From the NCBI GenBank assembly GCA_002256025.1, contig NKIB01014986.1:1-39040 (forward strand): DNA of 39,040 nt, in the 5' to 3' direction. This document shows positions 4,381 through 39,039 of the stretch, in pieces; position 1 is the first letter of the stretch; every line of letters begins with the position of its first letter. The notes below the pieces were generated by a model that ran no database searches, was not told the DNA's origin, and was given only the letters and a program-made list of their open reading frames with translations. The position numbers and the translations under genes were made by a program. This stretch comes from Asterionella formosa (Eukaryota).

Positions 4381-4980
4381 TGATGATAATGACCCCAACA
4401 CTGAACAACGATGCGCAAAAGCGGACTCCCAGAACGCCGAAACAAACGTTGCTCGCTGGCCAGCAGTTTTCCCTTCGAATATTATAACAATCAACCAATA
4501 AAAGCTACTGAAGAGGCTACGTTGGTCTGATAAACCGACTAATTCTCCTATCAAACAGGCGATGGGGAGAATACTGAACCTAATGCTGCAATTAGCGCTA
4601 TCAAAGGGTACCACATAAAAAAGAAGAAGTGATCACAGAGCAATATCCAACACAACTTGTTGGATGGGAAAAACTCAACATATTCCAGACAAGGATTACC
4701 CACTCAAGGATGACCAAAATGCATGCTGGTCCTACAGGCTGCTAGTACCAGGCACCTGCATGTCAGAAGACAGACCTCGCAGGACTACACTTAATGGTTT
4801 TCCCCATTGAGCATACACCCAAGACACCCTGAGGTATACCCAGAATTTACCATTGACGGATGATTTTGTACTCCCTTTTTGGTTGAAAAATCAACTCTGA
4901 TTAGTCGTAGAAAGGCTGGGATGTGCGTGATGATGCATAAAAAATGCACCTGAAGATGGTGATACCTGGTACTCCGCTTA

Positions 4981-5004
4981 CCGGCAAGTTGCGGTAATTT
5001 TGCT
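4981..5004 (+). mobile_element. Solo terminus of MITE family B (CCTGCAAGTTGCGGT-type TIR)
   Basis: TA|CCGGCAAGTTGCGGTAATTTTGCT matches the TIRs at 13641-13736 and 28413-28615; no partner end found. Confidence 0.6.
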
Positions 5005-6957
5005 ATACAAACAGTATGCATACTTTAGTGCTACATATGTCATTGTGCTGTCAATGGTGATTCCAATTCCAAATTGATTCTTGTGTATCTTTTTTTATTT
5101 TTTATCTAATAAACCACCCAACCGCATGGTTGTTTGGAATTGATTGTAACTTTAATCTGATTTTGCCTGCAATATTGAGACCTATCTTTTTACTTATTCT
5201 GCCAGTTGGTACCATAGCTAGGATTTGCTCAAGAATGTTTGACCATTTTGATTTAAGTATTAATTTCCCTTAATCTGTGATGTCATCATTTCAACCCAAA
5301 TGCCATCACAGCCGCATACCTACATAACGCTGTAGTTAAGGAGCGATACAACATACTGGTAATCACAAGGTGAAGTACTAAGCAATGTATTGCCCATGAA
5401 ACATGCAATATATCATACACCTTTTGATGGATTCATGTACAGGGCACCCGTGGTAGCCCACATAGGCACTATAATGTAATTATTGAACTTAGATTATGCT
5501 TTTTCTCAATTTAAAACTCTACGGTGTAGTCATTATGAACGGCTGGAGAGCGAATATTGCAAAATGTTGTTGTCTCAGCCTTGACCATGACAAAGATAGC
5601 AAATAACTTAATGAAAAATCAGAACGACTATATTTGGTATGTACAATAACGACATCATCGACAATACAATCAAAACAATTATGCTGATGACACTGATATT
5701 GACATGTTACGAGGAGCTTTGACACTTTTACAGTAACTACACAACAAGTAAGACTACGACTACAACTACGTCGATAACATGAAGAATTGGAGCAACAGAT
5801 TTTAAACAAGTTATTTTTATCTGCTGAGCGAGAATTGATTGATTACTAATTGGCAGGTTGTATAGTGGTGAAAGCTGACAAATGTCAAGTATGCTGTCAA
5901 AACTACTAGAAATGCCCTATAGTTAATGTTTGGCAGCCCCTTCATGCAGCATACATGTGAGTGCTTACAGGAGTACAGAACATCATTATGAAATAATGCT
6001 ACACATAGCGATCCACTATTATTACCAGCATATTGTTGACATAGTACGCACTGGTAGACTAATGCTGGTAAATCTCTTTCCTTCTGTAGTGAGACATGCA
6101 GTCATGTACATATGAATTAAGGACTCTGCATGCTTGTCTACAAAGTTAAAGAAAAATATTGCTTAAAGTTGTCTTGATTAAAGTAGATTCCATCATTTGC
6201 TTAAACCTAAATAGTCTTTCAGTACTTTAACCCAAAATAAAACGATTTGGAAAGTAAAATGGCTGTTGATCCAGACTAGTACAATGCTAGTAAGACACCA
6301 AAGATGCTAGTTGTTCTTTGACAGGAATGGGATTTAGGATAAGAGGACAAAAGCCAGCAAGGCTATTTACAAGGGTTGAAAGGAGTAGACTGAAATTTAT
6401 TTACTGCTGGTGCAAAATTCTGTGGGACACAGTTGCAATGCTAGTTTGTGCTGGTTATACTACTCCTGCAAACACAGCAAGAAATGGACCGAATTTATGA
6501 GCCATATGGCCAAGACCAAACAGTGAGCGACATACATACTCATGCATCTGATACAAGATTGTTGCACTGGTGGGCATTCACTACTGTCTGTTTAGATAAT
6601 TTCATTGAAATTTTAAAATTTGCAATCTCTTTAGTATTTACTATGCTTGTTTCTTAGTACCTCAATTGTTATTAACTATTTTATCTACTAGTCGTTTCAT
6701 GGTTTGCATGTTAACATGCATATTACTAGAAAACTGGGGAGGTAAAACAAGGGATTTCATTTCATGACAAAACTATAAGAGGTGATGGTATTACCCACTC
6801 TATACAAGGCAGGATATATACTGAGCTTTGTCGAAGATGCTAGTTAACTACCACTGCACTACATAGCGACGACTTTATGTACCAGGTACCTTTTACCCAG
6901 TCTAAACGAGTATCGGTAGATCGCTACATAGATAGTAATTTTTTGTCAAAGGTGCTA

Positions 6958-7832
6958 CCAGTAAAAAACTGCATTGACCCACTGTTTTATCCCATTCGTT
7001 TGATTAATTCGACTAACACTTAGCTCCCCTCTCTCTGAAATCTGTTCGGAAGTATTGATGGCATAAGGCGTCGGTACATTAGCATCCTTTTCCTAGTTAA
7101 ATTGAACATATGGTTCAGAAGACATTTATATACATCTAGACGTAAAATTCAGTCTCAGTAGGTCAATGCAGTATATGAAATTTTTCCTGCAAGTAATTTT
7201 ATATTTGTTGGTGAACACGGATTATCCTCTTTGGTTCAAAGCGAAAAGACAGAAAATGCATGATGCTCCATACATGATACCGGTACATTGCACAGGTACC
7301 GGTACCAGGTACCTGGTACCATTCCTGTTACCTAGTACCAGGTACAACAGATGTACAGTATCAGTTTTGTGCACAGCCATGGGTACATATTTATAGGTAC
7401 CAGGTACAAGGTACTCCGTACCACTTATGCTGGTCTGCCTTCATAGATACTGGTATTACACGACCTCACCGGGTTTCATCAATTTTTATTTACTTAATTA
7501 TTATTGACAAGGTTATGGATAAGACACAAAATGCGAGAAATTTACACCCATCGTTGTACACAATATAAGATGAGAACTCCAAACTTTGGAATAATCTGTG
7601 CTTTTCACTTTTTTCCCGATCGCCACTTTTGACCTAAATTAACGAAAGATCGACGTCCAATCGGTTGAGAACTAACAGTATGACTCCATCCATTATATGC
7701 ACAAGATACATTCTGGAGCTTACTAAGAAATAGAAAATGAATGATTTTTCATAACAAAACGTGTTTTTATACCGTCAGTGCGTCAATGCAGTTCGAAATT
7801 TTTCCGAGTGGGTCAATGCAGTTTTTTACTGG
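6958..7832. mobile_element. MITE A, non-autonomous Tc1/mariner-type element, 875 bp
   Basis: Perfect 26-bp TIR CCAGTAAAAAACTGCATTGACCCACT (6958-6983; reverse complement 7807-7832) flanked by TA on both sides (6956-57, 7833-34). Internal partial copies GTCAATGCAG..GAAATTTTTCC at ~7162 and ~7782. Confidence 0.92.
7278..7422. repeat. GTACC(A/T)G palindromic array inside MITE A
   Basis: GGTACCGGTACCAGGTACCTGGTACC, TACCTAGTACCAGGTA, GGTACCAGGTACAAGGTACTCCGTACC. Confidence 0.85.
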
Positions 7833-8156
7833 TACCGTTACTCCATTAACTTAAACAGTGCACAACATACCTACGACTATATGTAACAGTACCTAGTACC
7901 AGGTACCCAGTTGACCCTGTATTCAAGTATATGTACATCACGAGCTTTGTCGAAGGTGCTGAAGGCAATACATGCACGAGGTGGTCTCTTGTCTGTGAGT
8001 AGTACTATACATGTGTTCGAGGCTGGGTGGCATGAGTAGGTTGACTGTACAAGTGGCGCCCCCCGCGCTGCGAGAAGGTCACCCTACGAGTGCCATCCCA
8101 GTCGAGTACACATGTATATAAGAAGGCAAGTAGCCGCTGAGAAGGGTATTGTTGAG

Positions 8157-8968
8157 GCAATTCCCGCTCTAGCTATCGTCCCGTCATTCGCTTACCTACT
8201 GCCCACAAATAAAGCATAAATGTCAATTCTAGCCTACTATTGCCCATCATATAAAATATATTTTGTATATTTCCTATCTTCACCTCGAAAATTGCCAAAG
8301 GTCTGATATTGCTAGGGAGAGTCAATAGTGCTGGAGCAGCATGGAGATCACGCTTGCTCAGAATGGAATGATCAGGGTTGCTTGTTTGCTTAGTGGGCGG
8401 CGGGGAGGAATGACTATGGCGGAAATACTGCTACTGGTGTCAGGCTACTACAGCGATGCGCATGGTTGCAGCAACCAGACCATTGACGCTAAATAACGAT
8501 GCAGGTCTACATTGGGTTGAGCTTTTCTTCTTCTTCTTCTTCTTCTTCTTTCGGTCTTCGATTGTATAGTAATGGAAAGTCAATGTTGCCTGTGTAAGTA
8601 CTACAATGATTCACAATGCATATGTCTCCATTGGAACTCTTATTTTTAATTTCCTTTCTAACCCAAATTTTTTTCTATTTCTCATTTGGCTGATGCTACT
8701 TATTACATCGCCATTTCATACTTTGGTTGCTCCAAACATCATGTTCAACTTTCATTGATGTTGCATGTTACAATCATTCTCGTGTGTTTTACGCTTGTTG
8801 TACCATCTCTATGCATATTACCGTTATTCTGGTTGTCATGCTAAAATCGGCAATTTTATTGCCGAAAAATTCGATGTGCCCCATATTGCCCTTAAATAAA
8901 AATTACTTAGAGCCTAAAAATTACTTAGAAGTACCCGAATGGCAAGACAATGGCTGAGCGGGAATTGC
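8157..8968. mobile_element. Degenerate TIR element (MITE C), ~810 bp
   Basis: Left GCAATTCCCGCTCTAGCTATCGTCCCGTCATTCG versus reverse complement of right end GCAATTCCCGCTCAGCCATTGTCTTGCCATTCG; first 13 bp identical; no clear TSD. Confidence 0.7.
8525..8550 (+). repeat. (TTC)n microsatellite, about 8 units
   Basis: ttcttcttc run read directly. Confidence 0.95.
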
Positions 8969-10058
8969 TAATTAACTACCAGTGCAGTACACAGCCACGA
9001 CTATGTGTATGGCAACAGAAGGTTGCGCTGAGAGTTGATTATTTTTCGGGTACGTTCGTAGTTCTCGTGCTATTAGGCCTGGTACAAACCATTATTTTTT
9101 AAATATAGCTAAATATTTTTGCGCAATGAATCTCGTGTTATGACGAATATTGCCATGTTAATTGCGTTAAGTCGCTTATCTTTGCTACCCTTCAGCACCT
9201 TGTGTTTTGCAATATTACATTAGAATCGTGATTGTAGCGGCAATAGGAAACATGTCCGCAAAACAGAAGATGGCAAACTTCCAGTTGCTTGGGAGATATT
9301 TTTTTATTGGTGATGGTAGTCATCACCTGTAATATTTGGGCACTGGATTCCGGCTGAACTCCTCATTCACTACATTAAGCAACAATACAACATTGGAAGA
9401 AACATGATATGAACTACGCAAACATTGATGAAATGCATGAACAAGTGCTACCCTTAGATGTCATATGATCTCAGTACAATCACCATTCCAAGTGGCACAA
9501 CAATGATGGACTTCATCAATAAACGAGCCAACTGTCAAGTCATGAGCATCTGTTACAACTTTTTTGTTGAGACTTCTACTACTGCTCCTTTTTTCTCCAA
9601 GAACAGTAATGATGCATCTTTTCTTAATAGTGCATCACAAAGCCGCTATTAGGGGGATCAAGGCAAATTCAAACTGGAGAGGTGATGGAATATTTTGAAG
9701 TTGGATCACTGAACAAAGAGCCAAGCTGATGCATTCAAATGAAGCTGATGATCCCTCAATTGAATACCTAAATCAACCTCAATAAGAATCAAAAATTTCT
9801 GTTTTTATAGAGCAAGAGCAGGCTCATCCAAACATAGATTATTGGAAGTCATCCACCAGGTGGCTGGCTGAGGTCAGCAGACTACTATTTGTTTCCAAAG
9901 CAAAGTATGGAGATAAGCCAAAGTCAAAGGATTTTTATTTGCATAATTGAGCTTTTCGAAACAATCAATAGAAATCCCAACCATTGGAAATTGTTTGTGG
10001 AAGAGAGAGATGCTTAAAAGCATTGTTCAGACTTAAAAAAATTTGATATGCAAAAAAC

Positions 10059-10298
10059 TTTTTCTGTTCGATCAATTGAATTTATATGTCTCAGGTTGTG
10101 ACAGCACTTTACACAGATCAATATACTATGTTTGTGTAAAAACTTGTCTTACATATTTTTCAAATGTTATTAATTTAGCTAAATTTTTGTTATATTTGGA
10201 ATTTTTTTGATAGACCAATTTTTTCTGTTTGATCAATGGAATTCATATCTCAGGCTATGAATTTACACATATCACTTCATGTGTATGTAAAAACTTGT
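10059..10298 (+). repeat. Diverged direct repeat, two ~80-90 bp copies 160 bp apart
   Basis: TTTTTCTGTTYGATCAATKGAATT..ATAT..CTCAGG..TTTACACA.ATCA..ATGT.T.TGTAAAAACTTGT at 10059-10147 and 10219-10298. Confidence 0.75.
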
Positions 10299-11220
10299 AG
10301 CGGATGATTAGATTTTGATTTTTGTGCATTGATTCTTTCCTTGCCATTCCAATTTGAACACTTTACATGCTTTGATGTATTTCATGTTGTATTTCTCTCT
10401 CCTCTCTCCATGACTACTTACCAAAGATTTCCGAAATTGTTGGAGTGACTGGGAAGCAAAGTAATTGAACAGGTAGAGGAGACAATTGATTTATCCAGTA
10501 AGGATCTGGTACAATTGAAAAGTTTTTGATGAAGGAATTCATAAATATTTACATGAAAGACAAGAAACAATGAAACACGTCAATTAAATAATCGGAAAAA
10601 TCAGTGTGAGAAGGCATTGTAGCTAGTACCAGGTAGGGCTCAAATGATTATATGCCAGTTAAGTATATAATTGTCCATGTATTAGAAGCAATGTTCGTAT
10701 TGCCCACTTATGTTTAATACCATGTCAGAGCTCAAACTCGCTTTGAAGTAATTACAGTCGCGCGTACGTTTCAAGAAGTACGCGACCTTCGAAGAAGAAC
10801 ACGCAACTAGAATTTCGTAAGACATTTGGAAAAAATACATCGAGGTCTTGGCACGATTCCACGTTTCTAGCGAGAAAGTACGGAAGTTCCCTTACCGGTC
10901 CCTTATGGTACCTGGTACCAGGATCTGCAAAAAAGAAAAACATAATTCTCAGAGTAATTTATCCACATGTTCATGTATACAAATAAAATACATGGTACGC
11001 AATGATGACGGCTATAGCAATGCTGTATATAGAAAAGCACTATCGGTAATGCGCAATACATACATAAAAACGATTACCGGTAATAAATCAAAATATTCGC
11101 CAATGTACGCCTATGTAGTACGGTAATGGTACGCAAAACTGAAACAAGCGATCATAATAAGCAGATGATAAGAGTTGTGAGGGAATCGACAATAACGGAG
11201 AAGGACGCAGTGATACGTCG

Positions 11221-12177: not shown

Positions 12178-12246
12178 AATTCATAGCAAATAAATCATAA
12201 AAACTAAAGTAAAAAACCTTTTCTACAGCAGCACGTTTCCGTTTCG

Positions 12247-13640: not shown

Positions 13641-13736
13641 CCTGCAAGTTGCGTTCATTTAACTTAAACTAACATTTCAATCTGGGATAAAGATAACTAA
13701 ATCTTTAGTTTCAGCAAAATTACCGCTACTTGCTGG
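13641..13736. mobile_element. MITE family B, short 96-bp copy
   Basis: CCTGCAAGTTGCGTTCATTT ... AAAATTACCGCTACTTGCTGG|TA imperfect TIR; internal AATCTGGGATAAAGATAACTAAATC shared with 28413-28615. Confidence 0.75.
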
Positions 13737-14666: not shown

Positions 14667-14776
14667 TACCAGGGTACCTGGTACCAGTAGTACATAATCT
14701 TAGTTAATGATGATGGATGATGAAACTACCGGTAGTACCAGCTACTTATTTTACCTACCAGGTACCGGTACAGTAC
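14667..14776. repeat. GTACC(A/T)G palindromic array
   Basis: GTACCAGGGTACCTGGTACCAGTA, TACCGGTAGTACCAG, TACCAGGTACCGGTACAGTAC. Confidence 0.85.
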
Positions 14777-15140
14777 ATCTACTAATACATGTGGTTCAAG
14801 TATGGCTGGCATAATTTTACAAGACCGAGATACTGCAGCCGATCTGGAGCAGGTGAGTAAATTCAATTCAACCAATCAGAATATGTGTAGTGATGCGGGA
14901 ACTTACCCTGGAGTCTTTTCGGACAGAGAATTATTCAGCAAAACATACCTACGCAAGACTCTTAGCTAGTCTACGAGAACGTTTTTGCACGTACTAATTC
15001 CGATTCCAATATTTTAGCGAGCGACTGTTGAAAAAACTGATCGGGTCGACTTTTTGGAAGAGGATTGCTCTACATCTACGGGGTTTCATGACGATTAAAA
15101 TAGATAGCAGCCGTGTACCCTATAACGTCAGGAGTTAACT

Positions 15141-15259
15141 TCTGGAGAGAAGTGGCAGTTATGTATCGTAGATTTTTTGAAAAGCTTCGTAGCCCCTTTT
15201 TTTGACTATTTTTGCGGTAGTTACGAATCTATGATACATAACTGCCACTTCTCTCCAGA
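15141..15259. repeat. 119-bp hairpin element with 34-bp inverted repeats (probable mini-MITE)
   Basis: TCTGGAGAGAAGTGGCAGTTATGTATCGTAGATT (15141-15174) versus 15226-15259, one mismatch. Confidence 0.85.
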
Positions 15260-16572
15260 GATGGGGTCCTTACCATATCTGTATATAGATCAGACCCCTA
15301 AGTCGAGCAATGACAGTATCTAAGCATATACAAAGTGGTTGTAATGGTGAGAGCTAATTTTACCTTTAACTATTACAATTACTTGTACGTGATGCGTGGA
15401 TTGAGGTACATCAAAAAAGATTTTGGGAAAAAACGGACCTCGCAATTTGTAACTGCGGGGCCGCAACCTTGACATAACTCTTAGACTGCTGTTACTGATA
15501 GATTGATGTTTAATGATCAGTGTGAACATGTAGAACCGCATTCAATAACATAGAGCGAAATTCTATCCCTTTTTAATTTTGAAGACCAAAATTTTGAGGT
15601 CAGTTGTATTTTATCGAGTCAGTTTCTTCAACAGACCATTTCTTTTGGAATTGTGCTTGATGACTTGTGGTTAAATAAATTTATTTCAGCCATAACAGCA
15701 GCTTTACGTATCTGTTTAGTTAAAAGCTTTAATGTTCCCTGTGTAAACATATTCCCCCTTGATAGGTGTATAAAAATATAACAACCCATTATGTAAATGT
15801 TCTGTATCACCATAGGAATCAATGACATGCAGAAAACCACTGATATATCCACCACACAGGAAATGGCATTCTGTATAAAATCCATCTAAAATAAACATCT
15901 GGACAAATGAGCAAACTCGCAGAATGTACTTAGACCAGGTACTTCTGTTGCAGGATACAAGCTGATGAATTAAGTGATGGGAGCATTATGTTTTATGAAA
16001 GAGTACTAGCAAAGGAAGAAAAGATCATACCTGCTATGCATGGTATATATAAATTATAAATGCTCAATGGACAACGAAATGTCCTGAAGTACGATCCATT
16101 CATAAGTTAAAGAGGAGGACCCACCGCCATCAAATATCATTCATCTTACATCATGTATATACACAGCAGCCACCAATCCATGGGATGCTAATGTTATGGA
16201 AATGAAATGCAATACAGCTTATGCATTCTTAAACAAAGAAAGAAATGAGACCGGAATCAGGCCTTGAGATGTGCATATGGGATTGATAAATTGAATCTAC
16301 CTTCGTCTATGAATGGAAAATGCGTTAGGCCTAACACTTTTGCTCAATCGTCGACTGCCCCAAAATTATCGCAGTATGAAGTATTATATTTTGATTGATC
16401 ATACAGAAAAACTCATCAATCAATCATTTTTTTGCGATCGATCATAAACATATAAATGATGGATCATAAAATATCATAAATAGTTATTGATCAATCACCT
16501 CTTTTGCGTTGGATTTTTAACATCATATGATTGATCACATACATATTGTCATACTATCAAACAGATTTTTAG

Positions 16573-18196
16573 CTTGAAAAGGCACGACTGTATGGCACCA
16601 AGAGCGCAGCAAACCGATGGCATGCACATCTAGCCAACACTCTACGATGTATGGGTTTTGTAACAAGCAGATATGATGCAGACATTTGGTACCAAGCACA
16701 TAGTGATGGCTCTAGCTATGATTACATCGGGACATATACTGATGACCTGATGGTAGTGGAAAAGAACCCGGAAGGGTACTTTGAGGTGTTACAGGAGAAG
16801 TATACGATAAAGAAGATTGGCCCACCTGCGTTTCACTTGGGATGTGACTAGTACGTAAAGGGGCCAGATGGTAAATGGAGCATAGGAACAGAAACCTATG
16901 TCAAGGAGACCCGCCTGGAGAGAGTGAAAGCCATGCTAGGCCGTAAGGACCTTGGCAAGGATGCATGACACACCTATCTCGCCAACATTCCATCCAGAGT
17001 TAGACAATTCACAACTACTAGATGTCGACCAACACAGGTTATACCAGCAACTAGTTGGAATAGCCCAGTGGCTGATAACATGTGGTAGGCTGGATCTCTG
17101 CTATGCCATTTCATCTTAAAGTCGATTCAGCTCTGCACCACAGATAAAACATCTAAACGCACTAGAACGAGTATTCAAGTATGTTAACAAGAATCGAGCA
17201 CTGGCAATTAAGATAAATCCGGACAACTATGTCTTACCAAAACAGCACGGAATTATGTACGAGGACGCAGATTGGACTGAGCAGTACCCGGGGGCAATCG
17301 AAGAAATGGATGAGAAATTTCCTACTCCACTGGGGAAGAAATTTACCACAAGCAACTATATACTTTGATTTGGACCACCACGCTCATGATCAGAAAACAA
17401 GACGCTCTATTACTGGGATGATAGCCTTTATAGGGTCCACTCCAGTAACATGGGCAGTGTCAAGGGGCCATAGCGACTACCGGTAGCACTTACACTGCAA
17501 AGCTATGTGCGGGTAGAACGGCTGCTGAGGAAGCCATCAGCATCAGATACATGCTGAGATCTTTAGGGGTGCCCGTGATAACACGAACGCTATTATTGGG
17601 AGTCAACCTGGGTTCGCTCCAAAGTACCTCGAATCCTGGGTCTGAATGCCATAAGAAACATAGTAAGGTTTACTGCCACTGTGTGCTTGAGTGTTGTGCA
17701 TCTGGAATCATTCAACTCACGAAGGTAGACACTAAGTTGAATCTTAGCGATGGCTTTACCAAGGCTGTCGAGAAGTCTATCTACCTTGATCATAGAAGAT
17801 GCCATTTTGCAGCGTAACACTTAGTAACAACGCGGCAATTTAGCAAATTCATCATTACTTTAGAAGCACTACGTCCATAGCTTGAGGGGTGCTGGTCAGG
17901 TACACATAGTACATTGGCATATAGCTCCTATGATGGGCAAGCGGATGGAAGTAGTGATCCCAACTACTGTAATACGCTCACTGCCTGATCAAGGGCGGGG
18001 TCCCACAAAGCCTCGGGGGAAGTACAGTACTGGTACCGGTACCAGGCATGTGCAGTGTAGCTGCTGGTGAGTACTTTTGGGTACGACTCGTACCTGTACC
18101 TGTGTACCTGGTGCCCTGACTGTGTTATGTTATGTTGAGGGCGGATTATAATACAATTTAATTAAACTTAAACATCAGTACAATTAAACATCAGCA
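16573..18196 (+). mobile_element. 3' half of a degenerate CoDi-like copia element (RT, RNase H, PPT, 3' LTR)
   Basis: LEKA(R)LYG..AANRW, YIGTYTDDL, FHLGCD, YQQLVG, DH(H)AHDQKTRRSITG, LRSLGVPV, NLSDGFTKA; stops and frameshifts present. Confidence 0.9.
17890..18196 (+). repeat. Candidate 3' LTR (307 bp) preceded by polypurine tract
   Basis: GAGGGG (17884-17889) directly followed by TGCTG; ends CAGCA at 18192-18196 (inverted termini). No second copy in the window to confirm. Confidence 0.6.
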
Positions 18197-19436
18197 TGGC
18201 AACAAGCAGTGTTGACCAGGAGAGTAAATGAACTGACACATTCCCATGCTTACAAAAGTGTACTTATTTCTATAATGTTGTACAGAGGTTATGGCAAATA
18301 GCCGATGATAGTACGCTAAAAGCTGTGAGTTTAGTGTAGAGGAGCCTGGGTAAAACAAGGATCATGATAACCAAACACTTGGCCAGTATTCTTCCACTAA
18401 CTATTACTACAAAAAAGGCATTGTAGTATTTTATGCCACATTGTCTTTTCACTTGGAATGTTATTACCCACAGTGCTGGAAATCCAACAAGGTATGTGCC
18501 TGTCAATGACCTTGTCATCAAAAAGGCCATAAAACAGGACAAGTCTGCAGACCAGACAAGGGAAACATTACAAGCAAGGCAGCCTCTAGAGTCTCACATT
18601 TAGCAAGATTTCAATCATGATGGTCATCCTTTTCTCATTCAAGTATAAAATCCAATTCATCAATGGTATAAGCTGCCTGCGTGCGTGTTGTGTCTGTCAA
18701 TTCCATGTGGTCAACCAAATTGACAATTGCTTCCAACTAACAAGAAAACTTACTGCAAATATTCGATTTCTTGTCGCTCTGATGGCCAAGCTGCGTCTGT
18801 GTTGAACGAAAATTCTAAGGACGAGAGGGCTGCGCCAAGCCAGGTTCTCATTGTTTGCATCCCTGTCAAAAGGCAGTTGTGTTCTCCTTTCCTTGGCCAT
18901 TATCTTGAGACGGAGTGTATGGAACAATGCATTTACCCGAAAAACCGTGGATTTTCCGCTAAGAACTGACAATCCAGCAAATGCCAAAGAAAGACCTAGA
19001 CAATTCTGCAAGATAATGTCCGTGAAGGGAAAATCATGAGTTTTGACAATTGAACAATGGTAAATTGTCAAAACAGGATATCTAAGTACTCATTAACACA
19101 TACAAGTTGAAATGTATGCTCCTGAGATGATATTGTTTGAACGATGGTGGCACATATCGTGGTGGTCCACGCTGGGCAGTGTTCCTAACAAAGTTGCTTT
19201 TGCTGCAACAAATGCCAACAGCAACCCAAAATGGAAATGTCAGCCATATGCTATCAAGGCGATCAATCCTAAACAAGTTCAGAGGTAACAAACAGAGTTG
19301 AATGATTAAAACGAGTGAGCTAAAAAGTTTATTAATCTATTTTCGATCGCTTGTTGAGCTGGGCTTGAAAAGTACCTGTTACGTAAAAATCTATCAACAC
19401 TGATTGTTCACATGGTAACCGTATGATCACATGCTA

Positions 19437-19496
19437 TACCAGGTACCTGGTACCACCTTTAGACTACCAGGTACTGGTACCAGGTACCTGGTACCA
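19437..19496. repeat. GTACC(A/T)G palindromic array ~65 bp upstream of the ClpR start codon
   Basis: TACCAGGTACCTGGTACC...TACCAGGTACTGGTACCAGGTACCTGGTACCA. Confidence 0.9.
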
Positions 19497-19559
19497 TAGA
19501 AGCTGAAAGAAAATATCAAGCAGGTTGAACAATACAATACCCCTTAATAAACAGCAACG

Positions 19560-20468
19560 ATGAAGCCGCTACTGTTTGGACTGTTCGCCACTGCCTTGAC
19601 CTGGCCAACCACGGAAGCATGGTCCTACTCGCAGCTGCAGAAGGAGTCTGCCAAGATGGCCATGGTCCGGCGAAGTCCCATCCAGATGCCCACGCAGACG
19701 CCCATGGTCCCCTACAAGGCCCCTGGATCGGACTACGCTCAATTCATGGATCTGTACAGTCGTATGTACCGCGACAGAACCATGATGATTTCATCCTACA
19801 TTAACGAGGAAGCCGCCAACAACATTATTAGCATTCTACTCTACCTTCGAAACGAAGACCCAAACGGACCATTGGATCTGTATTTCAATGTCCCCGGAGC
19901 AGACTTGAGGCCAGCCCTGGCCGTATACGACTTGATTTGTCAAACTCGCAACACATGTGAGATTACGACCGTCAATTTGGCACTGTGCTCAGGGATGGGG
20001 GCCATGCTGTGCGGGGCTGGCACGCCGGGCAAACGATCGGCCATGCCCAATGCACGCTTCTTGTTGTCGCGCACGGGCATGGAGCGGACCTTTAGAGGAC
20101 AAGCTAGTGACATTGCCTTGGAAGTCAAGAATCTCAAAACTTGGAATGACCGCATGGAGGTGGAGTTGCAAAAAATGACCGGACAACCGATGGAAGCTGT
20201 TCAACGAGATTTGAAACGAGACTTCTATTTGAGTGCAGATGAAGCTGTGTTGTATGGACTGATTGACAAGGTATTGATGCCCACTTTCAACAAGCGAGCG
20301 GCGGCTGGTGGTGTGGTGGGCCTGGGAACTTTTGAAGGAGAGGAGCAACGCTACCAGGGGGACAACGCAGGCGGTGGAAACAGCGGTGGTGGATGGGGGA
20401 GTCAGCAAAAGGTACAGCCTCAAAAACCAAATAATAATGGCGACGATGAACCGAAGACGCAAAAATAA
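19560..20468 (+). CDS. clpR: Plastid Clp protease non-catalytic subunit (ClpR-type)
   Basis: 302 aa ClpP fold (DLYSRMYRDR, ANNIISILLYL, LYFNVPG, GKRSAMPNAR, GQASDI, RDFYLSADEA..YGLIDKV). Catalytic Ser and His positions replaced (CSGMGA, FLLSRT). Signal peptide ends TEA|W. Confidence 0.88.
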   Translation: MKPLLFGLFATALTWPTTEAWSYSQLQKESAKMAMVRRSPIQMPTQTPMVPYKAPGSDYAQFMDLYSRMYRDRTMMISSYINEEAANNIISILLYLRNEDPNGPLDLYFNVPGADLRPALAVYDLICQTRNTCEITTVNLALCSGMGAMLCGAGTPGKRSAMPNARFLLSRTGMERTFRGQASDIALEVKNLKTWNDRMEVELQKMTGQPMEAVQRDLKRDFYLSADEAVLYGLIDKVLMPTFNKRAAAGGVVGLGTFEGEEQRYQGDNAGGGNSGGGWGSQQKVQPQKPNNNGDDEPKTQK

Positions 20469-20491
20469 TTAGAAGTCACTTTTCTTTATTT

Positions 20492-22643
20492 TTACACATC
20501 AGTTGGTGCTTGATCTTTATCATCGTCAATAGGCGCAAATCCATAATCAAAGTTGCCTGTCTTCATTTCATCTTCTTCCTCCTTCATGAGCTGTTCCATT
20601 GCCTTTTTCCATTCTTGATCAATGGCACCAGTATTATCTTCATTGCTATGATACACCATACTCTTCGAGTTACGAAGGACCATCTCAGCTGCAAGTTCTT
20701 CGGGAGTGGTCCCTTGAGTTTCGGGAAGAACCAAAACGGCAAAAGCAAAAGTAAATGCCAGCACCAATGCAAATGGTGCAAACGAGTACGGGCCCAAATA
20801 TTTGTTCATGTACGGAAAGACAAGTCCGACAACAAAGTTGCAAGCCCAGTTCACTTGACTGCAGGTTGCCATGGCCACTGCCACATATTTGGCATCAAAC
20901 ATCTCAGCAACAATGAGCCATGGGATGGGTCCCAATCCAATCTCAAAGAAGCTCACATATACATTGACTGCCACAAGAGCCATAATGTTGTTAAAGTACC
21001 CTAACAAGGCCAATACGATGACCACACAGCTGAAAAACATGCCTCCTGATGACCACAAAATAAGAGTCTTGCGTCCGCATGAGTCCATCAGCAGGAGAGC
21101 CACATAGGTGGCAATCACGTTGACAGCACCAACGATTGTGGTTCCAATCAACGGGTTCTCAATGACACCTTCAAAGAACGATGTGGAGTAATAAAAGACT
21201 GCGTTGATACCGCAAAACTGCTGTGCCATTTGCAACACCAAGCAACTAATCAGCAAAACGCGGATCTTGTTGTGCGAGAACATTTCGGAAAGGACAGCAC
21301 CCTGGGAAGCCTGTTCCTGCCTTTGAGCAGCACCTCCCAATACAAAGTGTCCCACTTCTGTTTCAACTTCATGGTCGTACCGCAATCCGCGAAGTTGCTT
21401 GATGATGTATCGCGCTTTGAGAGAGTTTGGGTCTCTTCCAAGCAACCAACGAGGACTCTCCAACAAGAATGGCGAACAGAGGAGCTGAACGATAGCTGTT
21501 ATGACAGTGACAGAGAAAAGAACGCGCCAAAGACGTTGCGTGGCAAAGGAGAATGCCAACAAGTCGCTGGCGAGAATACCAATCACCATGGCAAACTGTG
21601 TCAATGTCCCAAGCGTCCCACGGAGTGTGGGTGGGGCAAGTTCTCCCAGGTATATTGGGACTAGTACCGACGAGAAGCCACTGGCGAATCCAATTATGAA
21701 ACGAGAAAGTATGATGGTAAACATGTCCACTGCAAACGTTTGCATCAATCCGCCTAATAAAAAGGTCCACGTATCAATGAGGAGGGCTCCACGGCGGCCG
21801 CGAGAGTCCGCCATCTTCCCCCCGACGGTCGCACCGAATGGACCACCAACAGCAAAGGCTGCCACTGCCAATGACCAGGTGCCAGTGCTGTGACCTGGGA
21901 AAACGACACTTTCGGGAGCGTTCATGACTCCAGTGTTGTATCCCACCAAAAACTGTGACATGGCAGCCACAATTATGGCAAATACAAGTGGTGTGGTCAC
22001 CATGACTGTCTCAAACTCCAGCTCATCTAGAATAATCATACTAGCACGCGAGCGACGTGTTTCCTTATCTTCGTTCGACAGTTCCATGTGACCCATGACA
22101 TCCAAGTCGGCTGCGTAGGATGCAAACGCTTGACTGATGGCGCGTTCCTTCTTTTGCAAGCCAAACACAGCAGTGAAAGGCACTTGCTGGTAGAGCTCCT
22201 GTATTCCCATCTGGGTGGGAGTGAGCGCCGACATGGATCCGTCGACGCTGACGCTATAGGATTTCGGCAGTCCCTTGACGTTCGGGGGCTGTGTGAACTG
22301 AAAGGTCCCGAGACTGGATGAGCCACCTAATGCGCCAATGGACGCACTGCGCCCTGCCTTGTGCATTTGACGAGATTGGAAGTTGGTGGGGTCCTCGAAG
22401 GTTCCCCTGCTGGATTCCTGCTCGTATAGAATGGCAAGGAAATCATGGAAAATGTCAGTGAATGCTGAACAGGTTCGACTTCATCGCATGCCACTCTCAC
22501 AGCTACAGAGATTCTCGATCTGTCGAATTCAATTGTTCACGCTGAAAACAAAAACGCCGTTGCGGAAGGGAATCGCGAACGACCAGTCAGCTCACCTTGC
22601 CTATGTCATCCTTGCGGAGGAGGCTTGTCTTTTCCGACGCCAT
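20492..22643 (-). CDS. MFS sugar porter (GLUT/SLC2-like hexose transporter), 2 exons
   Basis: [64 protein letters not shown]. Predicted exon 1 22643-22596 ([16 protein letters not shown]), intron 22595-22418 (GTGAGC..CACTGAC..CAG), exon 2 22417-20492 in frame. Confidence 0.92.
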
Positions 22644-22867
22644 TGTCACTAAATGCTATCCAAAATACTGAGTTAAGGATCAACTACAGCTAGATGCATT
22701 TGCCGACTAATATATTCAAATAAAATGGAAGCTAATTCCTGTAGTGTGCACAAATGTGATGATACAAACGGGCAGGCAAGGCAGAGGATCCACTTCTGCT
22801 CGCTGGCGGTCACAAGGTTCGTCAAGTTGTTAATCATTTTCATACGCACATTTTAAGTAGAGTGCCA

Positions 22868-22949
22868 GGTACCCCGTGCCGGTACCAGGTACCTGGTACC
22901 ACGTCCTCGGAGTACAGTACCACTTCCTAGTACCTGGTACCTGGTACCG
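22868..22949. repeat. GTACC(A/T)G palindromic array upstream of the sugar porter
   Basis: CCGGTACCAGGTACCTGGTACC, GGAGTACAGTACC, TAGTACCTGGTACCTGGTACCG. Confidence 0.9.
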
Positions 22950-24138
22950 TTGCGCTGGACGTGGGATCGATAAAAGATGAAACATCCACCCAGTATTGGG
23001 CAGCTTGACCTATCCTGAATCTGATTCCTTGGGAATGTATTTCATTGAGTCAAGTCTGCACTTTGCACCAATGAGCAGGTGAAAAAAGGCACATCCCAGT
23101 CTGTTATCCAACATTTTTTTGTTCATTCACTCTTAGTTCACCATGCATTCATTCATTTGATTCAATGGTTGCTGGGGAAAAAATCATTATTGATCATGCC
23201 TGCACATTGCCATGCATGGTATACACCTAATAAATGCTCTTGATGCATGCCTCCCGCCTTCTTTATACTCTGATTCTGAAACTTGTCTCACTGGTGCTTG
23301 CTGCAACTCCCCCTTCCTTTTGTTCCAATTCTGAATTCACATGTGCTATTCCATTGTTTATCCATTTTGTTTTCCTAATCATACTAACAATGAAGAGGTA
23401 TAAATCGTTAGTCATGTTTGGTTAAAACCTATACATGCAGTTCAATTTGACCTTGCTTCACTTATCAGAAATTGATGCACTTTTTGCATATTTCTGTAAA
23501 ATAATGGCTATGCCAATCAAAAATTGCATAAGTACACGACACCAATATATCGTTCCACCAATGTCATTTATACCTTACAACCAATACTGTTTGATTTCAA
23601 TTATCCTGAAATATAAACATGCATGTGTCAGTTATGTTCTAACAGTTCTTGTGCATTGATCCAAGAAGAGCACTTAACAATTTGGTTTTGTCCAAATTGG
23701 TGGCTTGTTCCCATGGAATGGAAAATGAGCTATTAAATCACCTAAAAAGAACAAAGCAATCATTTAGTCTTTTTCAAACCAACAATCGATCGTCCTATCA
23801 TGTGCCCTTCATGTGCCATAGATAGATTCACTTTATCATTTTGTTGGAGCGTCATTTCAGTTTTCCTTGTCATGTGGCTGACTGATGTGATCTTTCAATT
23901 CAGGAATTGTACCATTATGCATGAAAAGTAACATTTAAACACGATTTCAAATGTATTAGCCATGTAAATACATTGATAAAAATTATGAAAATGTATAAAT
24001 ATTTATACCGTTGAACATTTGCATTGTTCAAAGACACTCTTTATATCGCACATCATGTGTATACTATCATCAGTTAAGCAAATTTATACATAATTCAAAT
24101 ATATACAAGGCATGATAATTGTTAAATTGTCTATTGTT

Positions 24139-25130
24139 TTACTTGACAAAGAATACACATGGATCGACCTTGCTTTGCCGCAATCCAACTTTAGTTAAGT
24201 TTTGAACCATCTTCTTGAAGAATTGTAGCGCTGCTTGAACTGTGCCATACATGGCCTTCTCCAACTTAATGCATTTGTTTTTCATTGTTTCTTGTGTTTC
24301 GAAACCAAAGTCTAAAACCCCATCTGGCCATTCAATACAGATTTGCTCTTCCATATCTCCTTCAGGAAAAGCAGCTTCAACATCAATGATTTCACAAACC
24401 CATCGTTTTTCTTCAGTTTTATCCCATTTGTATAACGAGAGAGCGAATATCATACGCATTGAAGCATCTGTTGCAACTGGAGCAAATGAATCAGTGAAAT
24501 CCAGTCCCGGGATCTGAACATAGCCTTTCACTACAATACGTCCTTTGTATTGAATACTTTTATCCAGCTTGGATTTCTTCTTGAATAACCAGCGTGTGCC
24601 TAACGGTTTTCTGCCCTTGAGATTGTCACGAGGAACCATTTTCCAAACATTTCGCTTGTAGAAATTGTTGATCTCATTTTTAATAGCAACGGTCCACTGC
24701 TTGTTCTCATCTCGTTTCATAGCCTCCTTGTAATGCTTTGGCTCACCAGGATCTGAAACAAGAGTAGTAGAATACGCATAGAACCTCTCTACTCCTTCTT
24801 TACTTTGAAATAGTTTATCATCGTCTTGATAGGCCGCTACAGCATAATCGATTTCTTCAATTGATCCTTTGTCCTTGTCATCTAGTTGTAAGTTGCGCCG
24901 AGCACTGGTGCGTTTGCCAGTAACTTCTTTCCAACCATCAAGGCGTTTCAATTATCGTTCCAATTTTGCTTTCTTCGAAGCATCTTTGTTGATCTCATCA
25001 TCTAACTTCCCCACTGCTTCGGATAGCTGAAATCTTGTTTGTTTCACAACTGGAACAGGTGTTTCCAAATCAAGATCCTGCTCTTTTTTCAATAAGTGTC
25101 GCATGTTTTGGGTCTTGGTTTCTAATCACT
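24139..25130 (-). mobile_element. Truncated Ty1/copia reverse transcriptase fragment (different lineage from the CoDi-like relics)
   Basis: EPKHYKEAM, GTRWLFKKK, YKGRIVVKGYVQIPGLDFTDSFAPVA, DVEAAF, LEKAMYGTVQAA, DPCVF; ends abruptly before YVDD; frame continues upstream through one stop (KLER*LKRL). Confidence 0.92.
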
Positions 25131-28321: not shown

Positions 28322-28412
28322 AAAACATGTTGGGAAATTAAAATATTTAATGTTTACAATGTTTCACTCCTTCACGTCTGAGTTGTAACAAAACCTCACA
28401 GGAGGAGAAACA

Positions 28413-28615
28413 CCTGTGCAAGTGCGGTCATTTTGCTAGCAACAATTTAATCTGGGATAAAGAAAGCTAAATCCTCAGCAGAGCGAAATTACCGCAACTT
28501 TCCTGCTTGAATAAAATTTTTAATCTTGGATAAAGATAGCTAAATCTTCATCCCAGATGCTATCTTTATCCCAGATTAAAATGTTTATTTAAGGAAAATG
28601 ACCGCAACTTGCAGG
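28413..28615. mobile_element. MITE family B, 203-bp copy just upstream of U6
   Basis: CCTG(TG)CAAGTGCGGTCATTTT ... AAAATGACCGCAACTTGCAGG|TA; internal AATCTKGGATAAAGAWAGC twice direct and once inverted. Confidence 0.8.
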
Positions 28616-28621
28616 TATTGA

Positions 28622-28822
28622 GTACCAGGTAGCTGGTCCTAAAACCTAAAACTACCGTATATCATATGAAAAATACTAAAAAAAACAGAGGTAGATGAAC
28701 CTAACTACAGGTACCAGTTAGATGGTACCTGGTACTCCACAAGGTAACCGAGTACGGTACCGGTACTCGTAGCACCGCGGGTTTTCCAGAGAGCAATCAC
28801 AGGCCCCAGTACTGGTAGTACC
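28622..28822. repeat. Scattered GTAC-palindrome cluster between U6 and HPRT promoters
   Basis: GTACCAGGTA, TACAGGTACCAG, GGTACCTGGTACTCC, GTACGGTACCGGTACTCGTA, GTACTGGTAGTACC. Confidence 0.8.
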
Positions 28823-30160: not shown

Positions 30161-30232
30161 TAACTTAAGCTGGAAACTGACATCTTGCTTAAACTTAAGC
30201 AGTGAATGCCAATCTTGCTTAAACTTAAGCAG
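30161..30232. repeat. 30-bp-period array with palindromic core GCTTAAACTTAAGC
   Basis: ATCTTGCTTAAACTTAAGCAG at 30182 and 30212; partial AACTTAAGC at 30162. Confidence 0.8.
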
Positions 30233-35400: not shown

Positions 35401-37264
35401 ACAGCGGTATATGTATGCTATTTCTGATGATGAAGCTTTTCTATCAAAGGTTCACGACAGTCATTCCGGTGGAGTATTCGGTGAAGGAGGCACTGCTGGC
35501 AGTGTCGTTGCAGGTACTGACCGTAGAGATCAAAATCTCGTGCCGAAGTGGAGTGGATGGTTCAACGAGCTTAGAAACTCTTGTTTTCAAATGCTAGGAA
35601 TGTTTTCTGGTCAGAGGGCGATGTTTGCGCCCGAGGTTGCTCCAATGTTTCCCTCTTTTGTGTCTGTTGTTGCAAACTCAGAGCATCTACAAGCAATGGA
35701 GAATCGTCACCTTGTCCAGTATATGTGAGTCATTCGATGCCTTAAGTTTTTTTGTCCTCCTGTCATCGTTTCTCACTTTATCTCCAGGAAGCAATTCTTG
35801 GAGATCCTTATGGTAACTTGTCCATCGACACTATATACGTCGCATCTCTCGCCCATTTTGGGCCCGGTATTGGAGCACGTCCAATACCGCTTGGAGAAGT
35901 CGTGGGACCCTATTGTCAATCCAGTTTCACAGGTTTCTAACAAGCCGCTCTTCACATCAGATTGCGATGCTGCTGCAACTCTTGCATCGTCCGGTGGTGA
36001 TGCGTGGTATAGCTCATATTATGCTCGAGGTGGACTCTTCGTTGGTGACTTGGATACTGTTACTGCTGAAGCTGCCGTGGATAAAGCTCGAGTGGAGCTG
36101 AGCCGCTGTTACAGTGACATGCTCCAAACGGCGTTTGCACTCAAGGGAGATTGGTGAGTATGTTCTCGACGACGAGAGATTTAGAAAATTGATCCTTTCT
36201 TCCTAACGCATTTCTGATTCACAGGGCATTGGTCCTTGCAACCCAATCCAAGGAAGACCAGGCCGTCAAGAAGAATGACCTGTCGAAGCTTTTGTCGGGG
36301 CCAAAAAGCCGAATCAACCACGGAGGTGCAGTGAACGCGGACGGAACTCCGAGGCGAGAAAGTCAAATTGCTGTCGACGCAAGGAAGAATTTGAGGATTA
36401 CGCGTATATGTCATTTTATGCTACTCGAGGACGAAAGAGTTGCAGGTCACCTCACTCTCTCGGTCATCCAGGTAAGCTAATCGTCATGCTGCTTTAATTC
36501 GGTGTCTGAAATTTCTCCAACTGATGTCCACGCTATAGTGCCTTTCATTTCCTGACGGATACACAGTCCGACGCTGTACAAAGCTCTGTCACCGAATTCT
36601 AGAGACGGTGGCGTGGTCTGCTCGATACACCGATATGCTTGTCAACAAAATGTTTCCCACAGCAGTACGAAACATTGTGACAGAACCAAAGTGGATGGTC
36701 GGAATCGAATGGGATCAAATCAATTTGATTCGAGACATTTATTGTCGACTCGTGTTGGGGCAGGTATTGCAACCTGGTGGCCAAGGTCCCGGTGTTCAGC
36801 AGCTGCAAGATCCGCGCATGCCCAACCATTATGAGCAAGCAAAGTCAGCTGAGACACCATTACAAGGAGGCGGAGTACTGATATCCCCCTCATATGTTCC
36901 ACGTCAAATCCTTGCGAGACTTCCTGGCGTTGGTGAAGCAGTTGTAGCAACTTTCGAGGACGACATGCGGAGAAAAAGGTCCGCAAAGGATCAGAAGGAT
37001 TTCCTACGCGATTTACTCCGAACTGCAGCTGAAAATTCTCTTCATATGGACAATGGCAATAGTCGTGGAGAAGCCGGAGTGTTCGATCGAGCTGTTGCTG
37101 AGGAATCACTTCTGAACCAAAAGAAGATTGGGAAGGCGGTTGCATTATCTGATATTCCTGAGAAATTGGTCACACATAGTATGGTCATGAAGCGAGCGCA
37201 CAAAGAAGTCACCGACAAGGAGAAGCAAAATCGCCCAGAAGGACTAGCCGCCTTCCAGCTATAG
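32404..37264 (+). CDS. XPO5: Exportin-5 / Msn5 / HASTY-like karyopherin, 8 exons, ~1457 aa
   Basis: Exons 32404-32979, 33049-33684, 33763-34041, 34108-34425, 34499-35724, 35788-36153, 36225-36471, 36539-37264; seven 63-78 nt GT-AG introns keep frame. Xpo1-type N-terminus (DRQTAFRILE, NKLASLL..RDFPQRW, LRLISED, RRNDVLIGLN). Subfamily call from motif recall. Confidence 0.8.
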
Positions 37265-37595
37265 CTATGTAGCCAGAAGGCGAAACAAATCGCGAGAGCA
37301 TTGGGATGAATCTTATGCCCCGTCACGTACGGAGAAGATGGTGAATCGTAGATGCTATTACAGGAATGAAACAATAACTATTTGGTTCAGAATAAAGCGA
37401 TTTATCGCCACTTTTGAAAGTTAACGTCAATCGTTCATTTTTCTTCTTTTTTCATAAATACTTTGAAACAACGGATACCTATTCCTCCTTTGTCGTTGTT
37501 GTCAAAATCAAAGGCGTAGCTGCGTCTTGTATTCATTTTCGAATGCATGATGGATGACATCCTAACTCTTCAAAATTGTCCATTTCAATTTCATG

Positions 37596-38453
37596 CTAAA
37601 GTAGCCCTTGGACAAACGCCATTACTTCCTTCGCCACTTCATCAGGTCGTTCTTCCATAACTTGATGACTAGCCATTTCGATTATCTTGAATGCCGCATA
37701 TTCTCCAATAGAATCTGCCAAATGCTGCCCCCCTTCCTTGGGAATGATTCCATCGGAAACGCCATGCATAATCAAAACGGGCAAATGGCTCACTGCCTTG
37801 GCTTCTTCCAGGATGGCAAACTGATGATGTTTCTGATACCATTTACATATGCACATGCTATTTTTATTTGACGCTACACGAGATGCTTCTACCAAGGCAG
37901 CATCAGCCGATGGATCGAACGCCATTTTTAAAAATTCCTTGGTCAACCACGGTTGGATGCATTTCAATACAGGTACTGGGAGTCCAAACAGCGGGTGCCC
38001 TCCGTTTGTAATCGGCAGGGGACCACCGATAATGGCTGTGGATAGAAAAATGCACGCCTTCACACGAGAATCATCGTTTTGGCATAAGTATCGCATGATA
38101 ATAGTGGGAGCGTAAGAATGACCCAAGAGGATTGTGGGGCGGGAAGGATCGATTCTGGTGTCCATGATTGCCTTAAGATCCAAGACTTGTTCGTCTGTAT
38201 GATAGGCAGCATAGTCTGAGAGCGTGGGCGATCTACCACAACCAACAGCGTCATATAGATAACAACATGCAGAGAGATCTTTTTCTTGCAGGCTGCAGAG
38301 TAAAAAGTCAAACTGAGCGGAAGAAGCGCAAGTCCCATGCAGCATCACGAGATTAAAAGTTGCGATTTCTGATCCGGTTCCCAGATGGAGTTCTCTGTAG
38401 AACAGGTTTCTCCCTGGCCGGATTGATTCTACTCCCTCCTTAACGACTCTCAT
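37596..38453 (-). CDS. Alpha/beta-fold hydrolase
   Basis: 285 aa; VMLHG, YDAVGCGRS, nucleophile elbow GHSYA, HGVSDG (Asp), ASHQVMEERP (His). Confidence 0.92.
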   Translation of the reverse strand: MRVVKEGVESIRPGRNLFYRELHLGTGSEIATFNLVMLHGTCASSAQFDFLLCSLQEKDLSACCYLYDAVGCGRSPTLSDYAAYHTDEQVLDLKAIMDTRIDPSRPTILLGHSYAPTIIMRYLCQNDDSRVKACIFLSTAIIGGPLPITNGGHPLFGLPVPVLKCIQPWLTKEFLKMAFDPSADAALVEASRVASNKNSMCICKWYQKHHQFAILEEAKAVSHLPVLIMHGVSDGIIPKEGGQHLADSIGEYAAFKIIEMASHQVMEERPDEVAKEVMAFVQGLL

Positions 38454-38686
38454 TGCAGCACAAGAACATGTATTAGTTTAATCGATCAGTAAGTTTAGAA
38501 GGATGGGAGACACTTGACAACTGCCGAGGATAATAGAGGTTCTTGTTGGATTGTTTGTTTGGAAACTTGATGTAGATTTCTCGGAGTCCCAGCAGAAATG
38601 GTCTTGGTATTCCTTGATTCTTTCTTCGCTCGTGCTGTTATTTTATCGTCCTTTATCTCCGTATGATGATTGTCTTGGGTACGCAC

Positions 38687-38770
38687 CGGTACCTGGTACT
38701 ATATTTATTACCGGTAGCTATTATTTACTGTCGGCGTACAGTACTCCGGAGTACCTGGTACTCCGTACTA
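38687..38770. repeat. Mixed TA-delimited palindromic array upstream of the hydrolase
   Basis: CGGTACCTGGTAC, TACCGGTA, TACAGTACTCCGGAGTACCTGGTACTCCGTACTA. Confidence 0.85.
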
Positions 38771-38985
38771 AGGTAGTCTACCTATAGTTAGTAAGAAAAG
38801 TACCAGTATTTTTTTGGAAGTTCCGGTAAAGGACGGTTAACCATACCGGTAAACCGGTATCATTGTGGTGTTTCATCATCCCCCTGTCGTCCACATCATG
38901 CACGGCTTCACCATTAGGCCATGCATTGCTTGGGATGCGAGCAAGAGCAAAGCAGCAGAGGATAGTGAGCGTTATCAAGGAATGT

Positions 38986-39039
38986 TACCTGGTACCTGGT
39001 ACCAATAGCATGAGTCGTACCCTGGTACCAGTACCGGTA
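38986..39039. repeat. GTACC(A/T)G palindromic array at the window end
   Basis: TACCTGGTACCTGGTACC, GTACCCTGGTACCAGTACCGGTA. Confidence 0.85.

Follow-up and report, generated by a model that had tools for sequence, protein, structure and literature searches.

Micro-arrays of TA-flanked CCWGG and CCGG units in the diatom Asterionella formosa as probable stacked excision scars of pogo-like DNA transposons

On excision, the transposon Sleeping Beauty leaves the footprint TAC(A/T)GTA. For the IS630-Tc1-mariner (ITm) elements, excision footprints are described as 2–4 bp between two TAs (PMC7913693). Pogo elements duplicate TA, measure 1.2–5.2 kb, encode transposases of 300–977 aa with a DD29–56D signature, and have stramenopiles among their hosts (Gao et al., PMC7386202). 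In intron 4 of the Triticeae beta-amylase gene, Stowaway elements inserted and excised repeatedly at one TA, leaving distinct 1–4-bp fragments of their terminal inverted repeats (TIRs) and, in one case, a new element beside an older footprint (Mason-Gamer, PMC1925063). NuwaI, a CWG-duplicating PHIS element (W, A or T), was reported from animals (Han et al., PMC4482050), and the palindrome TACATGTA was described as a Phytophthora promoter motif, a Tc1 footprint origin being weighed and dismissed for its abundance and conservation (Seidl et al., PMC3520976). Here we describe GGTACC-rich arrays in the 39,040-bp contig NKIB01014986.1 of A. formosa (G000:C14986; assembly GCA_002256025.1, 68.4 Mb in 15,436 contigs), which was analyzed in its entirety and is referred to as the window. 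From the sequences compared, we consider it about 85% probable that TA-duplicating, pogo-like DNA transposons left these arrays behind as stacked excision scars.

The arrays resemble ITm footprints in the TA duplication around a few terminal bases and in the central A/T ambiguity. They differ in that CC..GG ends give units of 4–6 nt, and in sheer number, one scar being present ~27,000 times in 68 Mb of genome. Sleeping Beauty and ZB prefer ATATATAT, which is not rebuilt by their scars, whereas the scar proposed here would rebuild its preferred target. The Triticeae site is one grass locus used by mariner-like elements; the units described here are genome-wide, would stem from pogo-like elements, form chains of at most 7 units, and come with a measured target bias that accounts for the return of the element. 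Literature searches of incomplete coverage turned up no description of self-targeting scar arrays spanning a genome, nor of GGTACC/CCWGG arrays in diatoms. The components are known; new would be the scale, the target-rebuilding loop, a transposase family without Pfam match, and a second element that exploits the scars. Excision scars, usually seen as rare traces, would here form the commonest non-coding word, one 9-mer alone reaching ~27,000 copies, and past transposition could be counted from them.

Motif counts in the window were compared with 100 order-3 Markov simulations. TACC[AT]GGTA occurs 28 times (simulated mean 0.79, maximum 4), TACCGGTA 16 times (0.92, maximum 5), GGTACC[AT]GGTACC 12 times (0 simulated) and GGTACC 42 times (19.5, maximum 28). 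With counts this far above the simulations, the GGTACC-rich arrays noted in a preliminary description of the window are genuine. Genome-wide, TACCWGGTA is found 26,886 times, versus 902 for the reversed control pattern, and its A and T forms number 13,279 and 13,607. All nine clusters singled out earlier are present, and each parses as a TA-unit-TA chain. The observation that intact coding sequences (CDSs) are without extended arrays was confirmed as well: the approximate CDS intervals (11,284 bp) hold 0 of 28 CCWGG units, 0 of 16 CCGG units and 1 of 42 GGTACC sites. This avoidance of CDS also speaks against an assembly artefact, which the fragmentation into 15,436 contigs might suggest. Contigs from independent runs of several studies hold 0.7–0.93 of the words of positions 18900–23200 (a measure that is not array-specific), and metagenome contig L171, which is unrelated, carries this type of array beside a related element, making an artefact extremely improbable.

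Units were further analyzed in 600 kb from 18 other contigs (long, and present in earlier match lists), or 639 kb with the window; the density of adjacent pairs is 89 per Mb in this sample and 81 per Mb in the genome. In a 387-kb non-coding proxy we counted CCGG 249 times (2.0 expected), CCWGG 245 (2.2), CCAG/CTGG 180 (10.9), CAG 116 (54), CCG 84 (19.7) and CCAGGG/CCCTGG 22 (0.4), together with the minor units CCTG (41), CTCCG (10), CCCGG (8) and CCATGG (3). The mirror of CCAGGG, CCCAGG/CCTGGG, was found 0 times, so symmetric decay of CCWGG is not its source; CCAGGG could come from a 4-nt end or from a slipped fill-in, which leaves 3 or 4 as the number of retained bases. CpG decay of CCCGG was rejected as the origin of CCWGG (CCCGG 8, CCCAG 7, CCWGG 245). 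The excess of CCAG over CCTG (180 versus 41) was dropped as evidence of end identity, as CpG decay of CCGG also gives CCAG/CTGG. The CCWGG, CCGG, CCAGGG, CCGGG, CCG and CAG units match the CCAG/CCAC, CCGT and CAGT ends of elements described below. The proposed match between units and resident termini therefore stands for CCWGG, CCGG and CAG, but not for CTCCG, for which no source was found: the sample contains no CTCC-ended family that could account for it.

Among 765 chains in non-coding DNA, 647 are single units, 76 pairs, 30 triples and 12 chains of 4–6 units; the longest chain in the sample has 7. Because the chains are short, the arrays are dispersed micro-arrays, and the term satellite, used in the preliminary description, does not apply to arrays of only 2–7 units. 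Such palindromic arrays might instead be generated from a palindromic 7-mer by slippage and fold-back template switching, with transposons merely favouring the resulting sites. Adjacent CCWGG units genome-wide are indeed in the same orientation in 3,074 pairs and in opposite orientation in 2,502 (55% same, p 2e-14), and tandem duplications make up 27 of the 111 insertions called in repeat copies (see below). Slippage, however, predicts nearly all pairs to be the same, so that it does not explain the 45% that are opposite (A-then-T 1,002, T-then-A 1,500). Neither does it fit the low number of identical neighbours in the sample (43 of 201), the predominance of single units, the asymmetry of CCAGGG, or the appearance of CCGG, CCGGG, CCTG and CCTGG at TAs without such a neighbour, and we judge it improbable.

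How units are gained can be followed in a dispersed repeat, R2, and in a miniature inverted-repeat transposable element (MITE) of a family here called F1 that splits it. The features concerned are as follows.

4780..8275 (approximate limits), R2, dispersed non-coding repeat split by the 875-bp MITE; a natural allele series
4963..4971, single CCTGG unit in R2; paralogues hold 1–4 mixed units
6880..6888, CCAGG unit in R2; in L138/L165 a 2.5-kb CCAG-ended F1 element sits at its right TA
6956..7834, F1 MITE of 875 bp (6958–7832) with a 28-bp TIR starting CCAG; TA duplication at 6956–6957 and 7833–7834
7278..7420, F1-internal array cluster (CCGG, CCAGG, CCTGG, CCTAG and CTCCG units) that is hypervariable from one MITE copy to the next
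7890..7905, two-unit array in R2; L141 has one unit fewer than L142 and the window

The cluster listed earlier at 7295 (7297–7318) lies within the F1 MITE and is in part inherited from it. R2 has 41 genome matches, with 70–91% identity to other copies. Insertions were called against a majority consensus in 24 of 30 F1 loci and in the window plus 19 copies of R2, yielding 167 calls, of which 113 are of 3–40 nt (111 once identical events were merged). Leaving aside the 27 tandem duplications, 31 of 84 insertions turn TA into TA-x-TA (2.2 on average, and at most 8, in 2,000 null simulations), and 21 of 84 are built only of end-like units (null 0.18, maximum 3). Ten of these 21 hold a unit of at least 3 bases (CCGG three times, and CCTGG, CCGGG, CCTG, CAG, CCAGGG, G-TA-CCAGG and CCAGG-TA-CCCTGG); the other 11 comprise C, G, GG and CTAG inserts of less certain source. 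Gains of TA-GC-TA, TA-CTAG-TA and TA-C/G-TA were likewise observed in R2 copies L139, L141, L146, L143 and L148 and in the sample.

At one TA of the MITE, copies L007, L015 and L025 each carry a different insert. At the 4963 site, where the window has one unit, L152/L153 have two, L137/L138 three and L136/L143/L154 four, the four-unit paralogues holding CCGG, CCAGG, CCTGG, CCCGG and CCAGGG. The preliminary description had reasoned that slippage-only changes would speak against footprints; what the paralogues display is the gain of whole mixed units at a plain TA. Host double-strand-break repair, inserting templated or non-templated bases at TA independently of transposon ends, would account for the single C/G, GC and CTAG insertions at TA for which no element was found. 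The longer units, in contrast, combine a prefix of one element end with a suffix of the other, and the bias of their flanks tracks the one that the matching family shows in its targets (CCWGG and CCAGGG units are flanked by G..C in ~78–80%, CCGG units in 35%). This repair explanation is highly improbable.

The F1 MITE has 98 genome matches, including ~40 related loci, at 77–95% identity, and exact F1 ends number 258 genome-wide. Of 59 ends scored, every one has C as its inner base and 52 have G as the outer base; in 43 of 58 the TA follows GG, and 20 of 58 adjoin a complete unit, versus 2.4% of non-coding TAs. F1 duplicates TA and prefers GG-TA-CC, in agreement with the GTAC-context preference suggested earlier, here for a CCAG-ended family. 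For the window copy, paralogue L141 provides the empty site GGTGC-TA-CCGG-TA, and this copy therefore landed in an older unit. Empty and filled alleles are thus represented by L141 and the window, and filled and +1-unit alleles at one and the same array by L013, L027 and L016, all of them paralogues. The element in L138 fills the central TA of an array at which other copies show units only, a position also taken in L166 and L010. Longer F1-ended elements of 2.1–3.4 kb with transposase remnants are located in arrays too (L163–L166). A 4-bp GTAC duplication by elements with CAG ends, which on paper leaves the same scar, was rejected on the basis of the inner C and outer G; the L141 empty site fits TA, and N-CAG-N units occur without matching flanks.

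In an F1 sub-family (L005, L006, L008, L011, L012, L021) the element ends 43 bp short of the usual end, an internal sub-terminal repeat having turned into a full TIR. A 3.3-kb element with CATCTAAGCCGCG ends is nested in an F1 MITE (G000:C371:17261-20563, L047–L048). A nested element with CATC ends, present in one MITE copy, was considered as TA-flanked and rejected, as its flanks vary in other copies.

The genome also holds 93 DDE_1 matches, among them pogo elements ending in CCGT and CAGT. Eight of nine loci compared are identical to L061 over 1,000 bases, a sign of either recent activity or assembly collapse. At the ends of CCG-ended pogo elements, the outer base is G in 4 of 25 and none of 25 adjoins a unit (Fisher p 1e-9 versus F1). 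The CCGG units would fit these elements as a source separate from F1. The self-reinforcement proposed in the preliminary description would accordingly hold for the CCWGG class; it is not supported for CCGG, as G-TA-C bias is absent both from the flanks of these units and from the ends of the CCG-ended pogo elements. A CCG-ended pogo MITE occupies the last TA of the 4963-site array in L150.

Of the two MITE families first thought to be TA-flanked, the CCAG..CTGG family (6958–7832) duplicates TA as described above. The other, the CC(A/T)GCAAG family (F2), is flanked by CWG and is represented in the window by two copies.

13642..13735, F2 MITE of 88 bp (13645–13732) with ends CAAG..CTTG and a CTG direct repeat on both sides
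28412..28615 (approximate limits), degenerate composite F2 (CWG-type) MITE

Paired F2 ends have a CWG direct repeat in 9 of 20 cases and an inverted one in 0 of 20, the remaining 11 of 20 showing neither (degenerate or spurious pairs). With this 3-bp direct repeat, F2 was rejected as a TA-duplicating source of scars; double-CWG scars are nearly absent (2 TA-flanked cases in 639 kb). F2 inserts in the middle of CCWGG units, exploiting the scars and not making them. It shares the CWG direct repeat with NuwaI but differs in its ends, which begin CAAG where those of NuwaI begin GGG. F2 is a very abundant MITE. Autonomous PHIS elements carry two ORFs; neither such a partner of F2 nor an F2 transposase came to light, and no search aimed at one was made.

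A candidate autonomous partner for F1 was identified on contig C14068 (L167–L169), a single complete element of 3,540 bp with F1-type TIRs at both ends, whose coding region is broken at a G/C run into frames of 222 and 763 aa. Its transposase has 294 relatives, with sizes of 700–1,000 aa; the best 120 are all without a Pfam domain, and the only named ones are Fragilaria crotonensis proteins. All 54 sequences compared share D247, D396 and D434, with a spacing of 37 (DD37D), and these residues are likely to be a catalytic triad within the pogo range DD29–56D. Top matches in the ESM Atlas (0.93–0.95) are DDE_1/HTH_Tnp_Tc5 pogo clusters, and hhalign against an alignment of the pogo proteins of this genome gives E-values of 6e-5 to 0.025 with the three aspartates in register. 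The 3.5-kb element agrees with the pogo superfamily in its TIRs, TA duplication, size, ~900-aa transposase and DDxD triad; it differs in the absence of a DDE_1 hit in 54 of 54 members, in DD37D, in CCAG/CCAC/CCGG/CCGA ends and in the G-TA-C bias. We therefore describe its product as a candidate pogo-like DD37D transposase, one that standard Pfam scans overlook. As the elements with matching ends carry pogo-like proteins, the original assignment to Tc1/mariner in the narrow sense was given up; no DDE_3 match was found among 16 candidates, in a search that is insensitive, since a pogo open reading frame (ORF) matches DDE_3. A second group of transposase-like ORFs without Pfam match, nested in MITE copy L124, was rejected as the F1 partner, the 8 loci examined being without F1 TIRs. 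These long ORFs (L124:3496-7477, L155–L161) have 56 genome matches, some multi-copy, and contain the motifs DGHE, GQDE, FDHS and PKCHxEL; element ends were not found.

Relatives of the C14068 transposase were also examined at 79 metagenome loci (L170–L248). Nineteen contain a complete element, all bounded as TA|CC..GG|TA, with ends CCAG (10), CCAC (4), CCGG (3) and CCGA (2), the boundary of L174 being doubtful. G is found on the left in 15 of 19 and C on the right in 13 of 19, and the relative in L171 sits in a CCTGG array. This ~900-aa DD37D pogo-like family is widespread (P0001–P0120), in elements of 3.3–3.8 kb from freshwater and marine metagenomes. TACGTA, in place of CCWGG units, is frequent in the hosts of related elements (26 in 16.5 kb of flanks, a count without a control; L174, L195, L210, L214, L222, L245) and may be a host-dependent shorter scar.

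The position of the units relative to genes was determined within 1 kb of 120 long ORFs in the sample, a crude proxy for genes. CCWGG units occur at 1.96 per kb on the 5' side versus 0.24 on the 3' side (8-fold, p 7e-22) and CCGG units at 1.52 versus 0.49, while TAGCTA is 3-fold enriched without 5' bias. The simplest cause of the 5' bias is targeting of open chromatin. A promoter cis-element, built by mutation and kept by selection for the binding of a homodimeric transcription factor or for nucleosome positioning, with transposons exploiting the motif, would equally be expected upstream of genes, and the Phytophthora palindrome has been interpreted as a promoter motif (PMC3520976). Against such an element, units arise in one piece within transposon-derived repeats, together with a TA duplication, their number and identity vary freely among paralogues, and their spectrum fits element ends; we consider it quite improbable. 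Selection on the units or their later co-option in promoters may still have occurred. Like TACATGTA, the units are a very abundant TA-flanked palindrome upstream of stramenopile genes; unlike it, abundance and 5' bias are here accompanied by direct signs of footprint origin. It is a speculative and rather unlikely extension that a target-doubling scar, once written into most promoters, was co-opted both as regulatory sites and as a landing pad for an unrelated transposon, and that TACATGTA-like palindromes arose alike. Transposon scars may be mistaken for transcription-factor sites when algal and oomycete promoters are searched for motifs, a question that can be addressed by comparing motif spectra with the ends of resident elements.

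We propose the following sequence of events for stacked excision scars. A CCAG/CCAC-ended family, comprising a 3.5-kb autonomous element, deletion derivatives of 2.1–2.5 kb and MITEs of 0.7–0.9 kb, inserts by preference at GG-TA-CC and duplicates the TA. By analogy with ITm chemistry, excision would leave a few terminal bases per side, which end joining would convert to TA-CC(A/T)GG-TA; CCA overhangs joined through an A-A mismatch or fill-in would give CCAGG as often as CCTGG. A scar at GG-TA-CC would create two GG-TA-CC sites, so that the same family would return. It does come back to existing units, and repeated cycles could grow chains of independent units by positive feedback, the scar being the new target. 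CCG-ended pogo elements, lacking this preference, would contribute CCGG, CCGGG and CCG scars, and the 88-bp CWG-duplicating MITE would take CCWGG scars as its target. Insertion into open promoter chromatin would probably produce the 5' bias. Compared with the footprint explanation as first put forward, the matching termini, the gain of units at TA and the G-TA-C targeting by F1 are borne out by the data, whereas excision itself is deduced from them.

Several points weigh against this explanation. Neither an excision event nor an empty/filled/scar trio of known descent was found among the paralogues examined, and the polarity of insertions rests on majority consensus. Some 27,000 scars versus 258 exact F1 ends require very high cumulative excision and long, heavy turnover. 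The excess of same-orientation pairs (p 2e-14) and the 1,500:1,002 asymmetry of order are both significant, and slippage, repeat amplification or biased repair probably contributes. CCAG/CTGG units are no independent evidence and were given no weight, because they are derivable from CCGG through CpG decay, as seen in MITE copies L002, L006 and L016. For CTCCG, GC and single C/G units, no source element was found. The transposase matches to pogo profiles are modest, with an E-value of only 0.2 against one pogo protein, and Pfam DDE_1 is matched by 0 of 54 members. Finally, among the 19 metagenomic relatives just one has CCWGG units in its short flanks (4 units, in 16.5 kb of flanks altogether), so that the family by itself is no guarantee of arrays.

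The remaining arrays of the window lie among genes for ClpP, a sugar transporter, a GDSL lipase, a phosphoribosyltransferase, exportin and a hydrolase.

10909..10917, CCTGG (a CCWGG unit), ~290 bp upstream of a plus-strand ORF at 11200
14667..14775, arrays CCAGGG-CCTGG-CCAG, CCGG and CCAGG-CCGG-CAG, including the chain 14667–14689 of the preliminary description
18023..18041, array CAG-CTGG-CCGG, adjoining a decayed copia reverse transcriptase (RT)/RNase H remnant
19437..19493, two arrays of 2 and 4 units (19437–19452 and 19465–19493), 65–120 bp upstream of the ClpP-family gene
22883..22946, two 2-unit arrays (22883–22898 and 22931–22946), upstream of the minus-strand sugar transporter gene
28623..28817, unit cluster, including the chains 28726–28734 and 28753–28765 of the cluster listed earlier at 28723, upstream of the phosphoribosyltransferase gene
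38690..39039, densest cluster, including the chains 38737–38767, 38986–39001 and 39018–39039 of the clusters listed earlier at 38737 and 38986, upstream of the minus-strand alpha/beta-hydrolase gene

The last of these extends to the end of the contig. A broken copia-type gag-pol on the minus strand (1–4632) directly adjoins R2, and more copia RT remnants are present at ~16550–17820 and 24139–25100. An inverted repeat of 53 bp with a 51-bp spacer at 15122–15278 is probably a small MITE of another kind.

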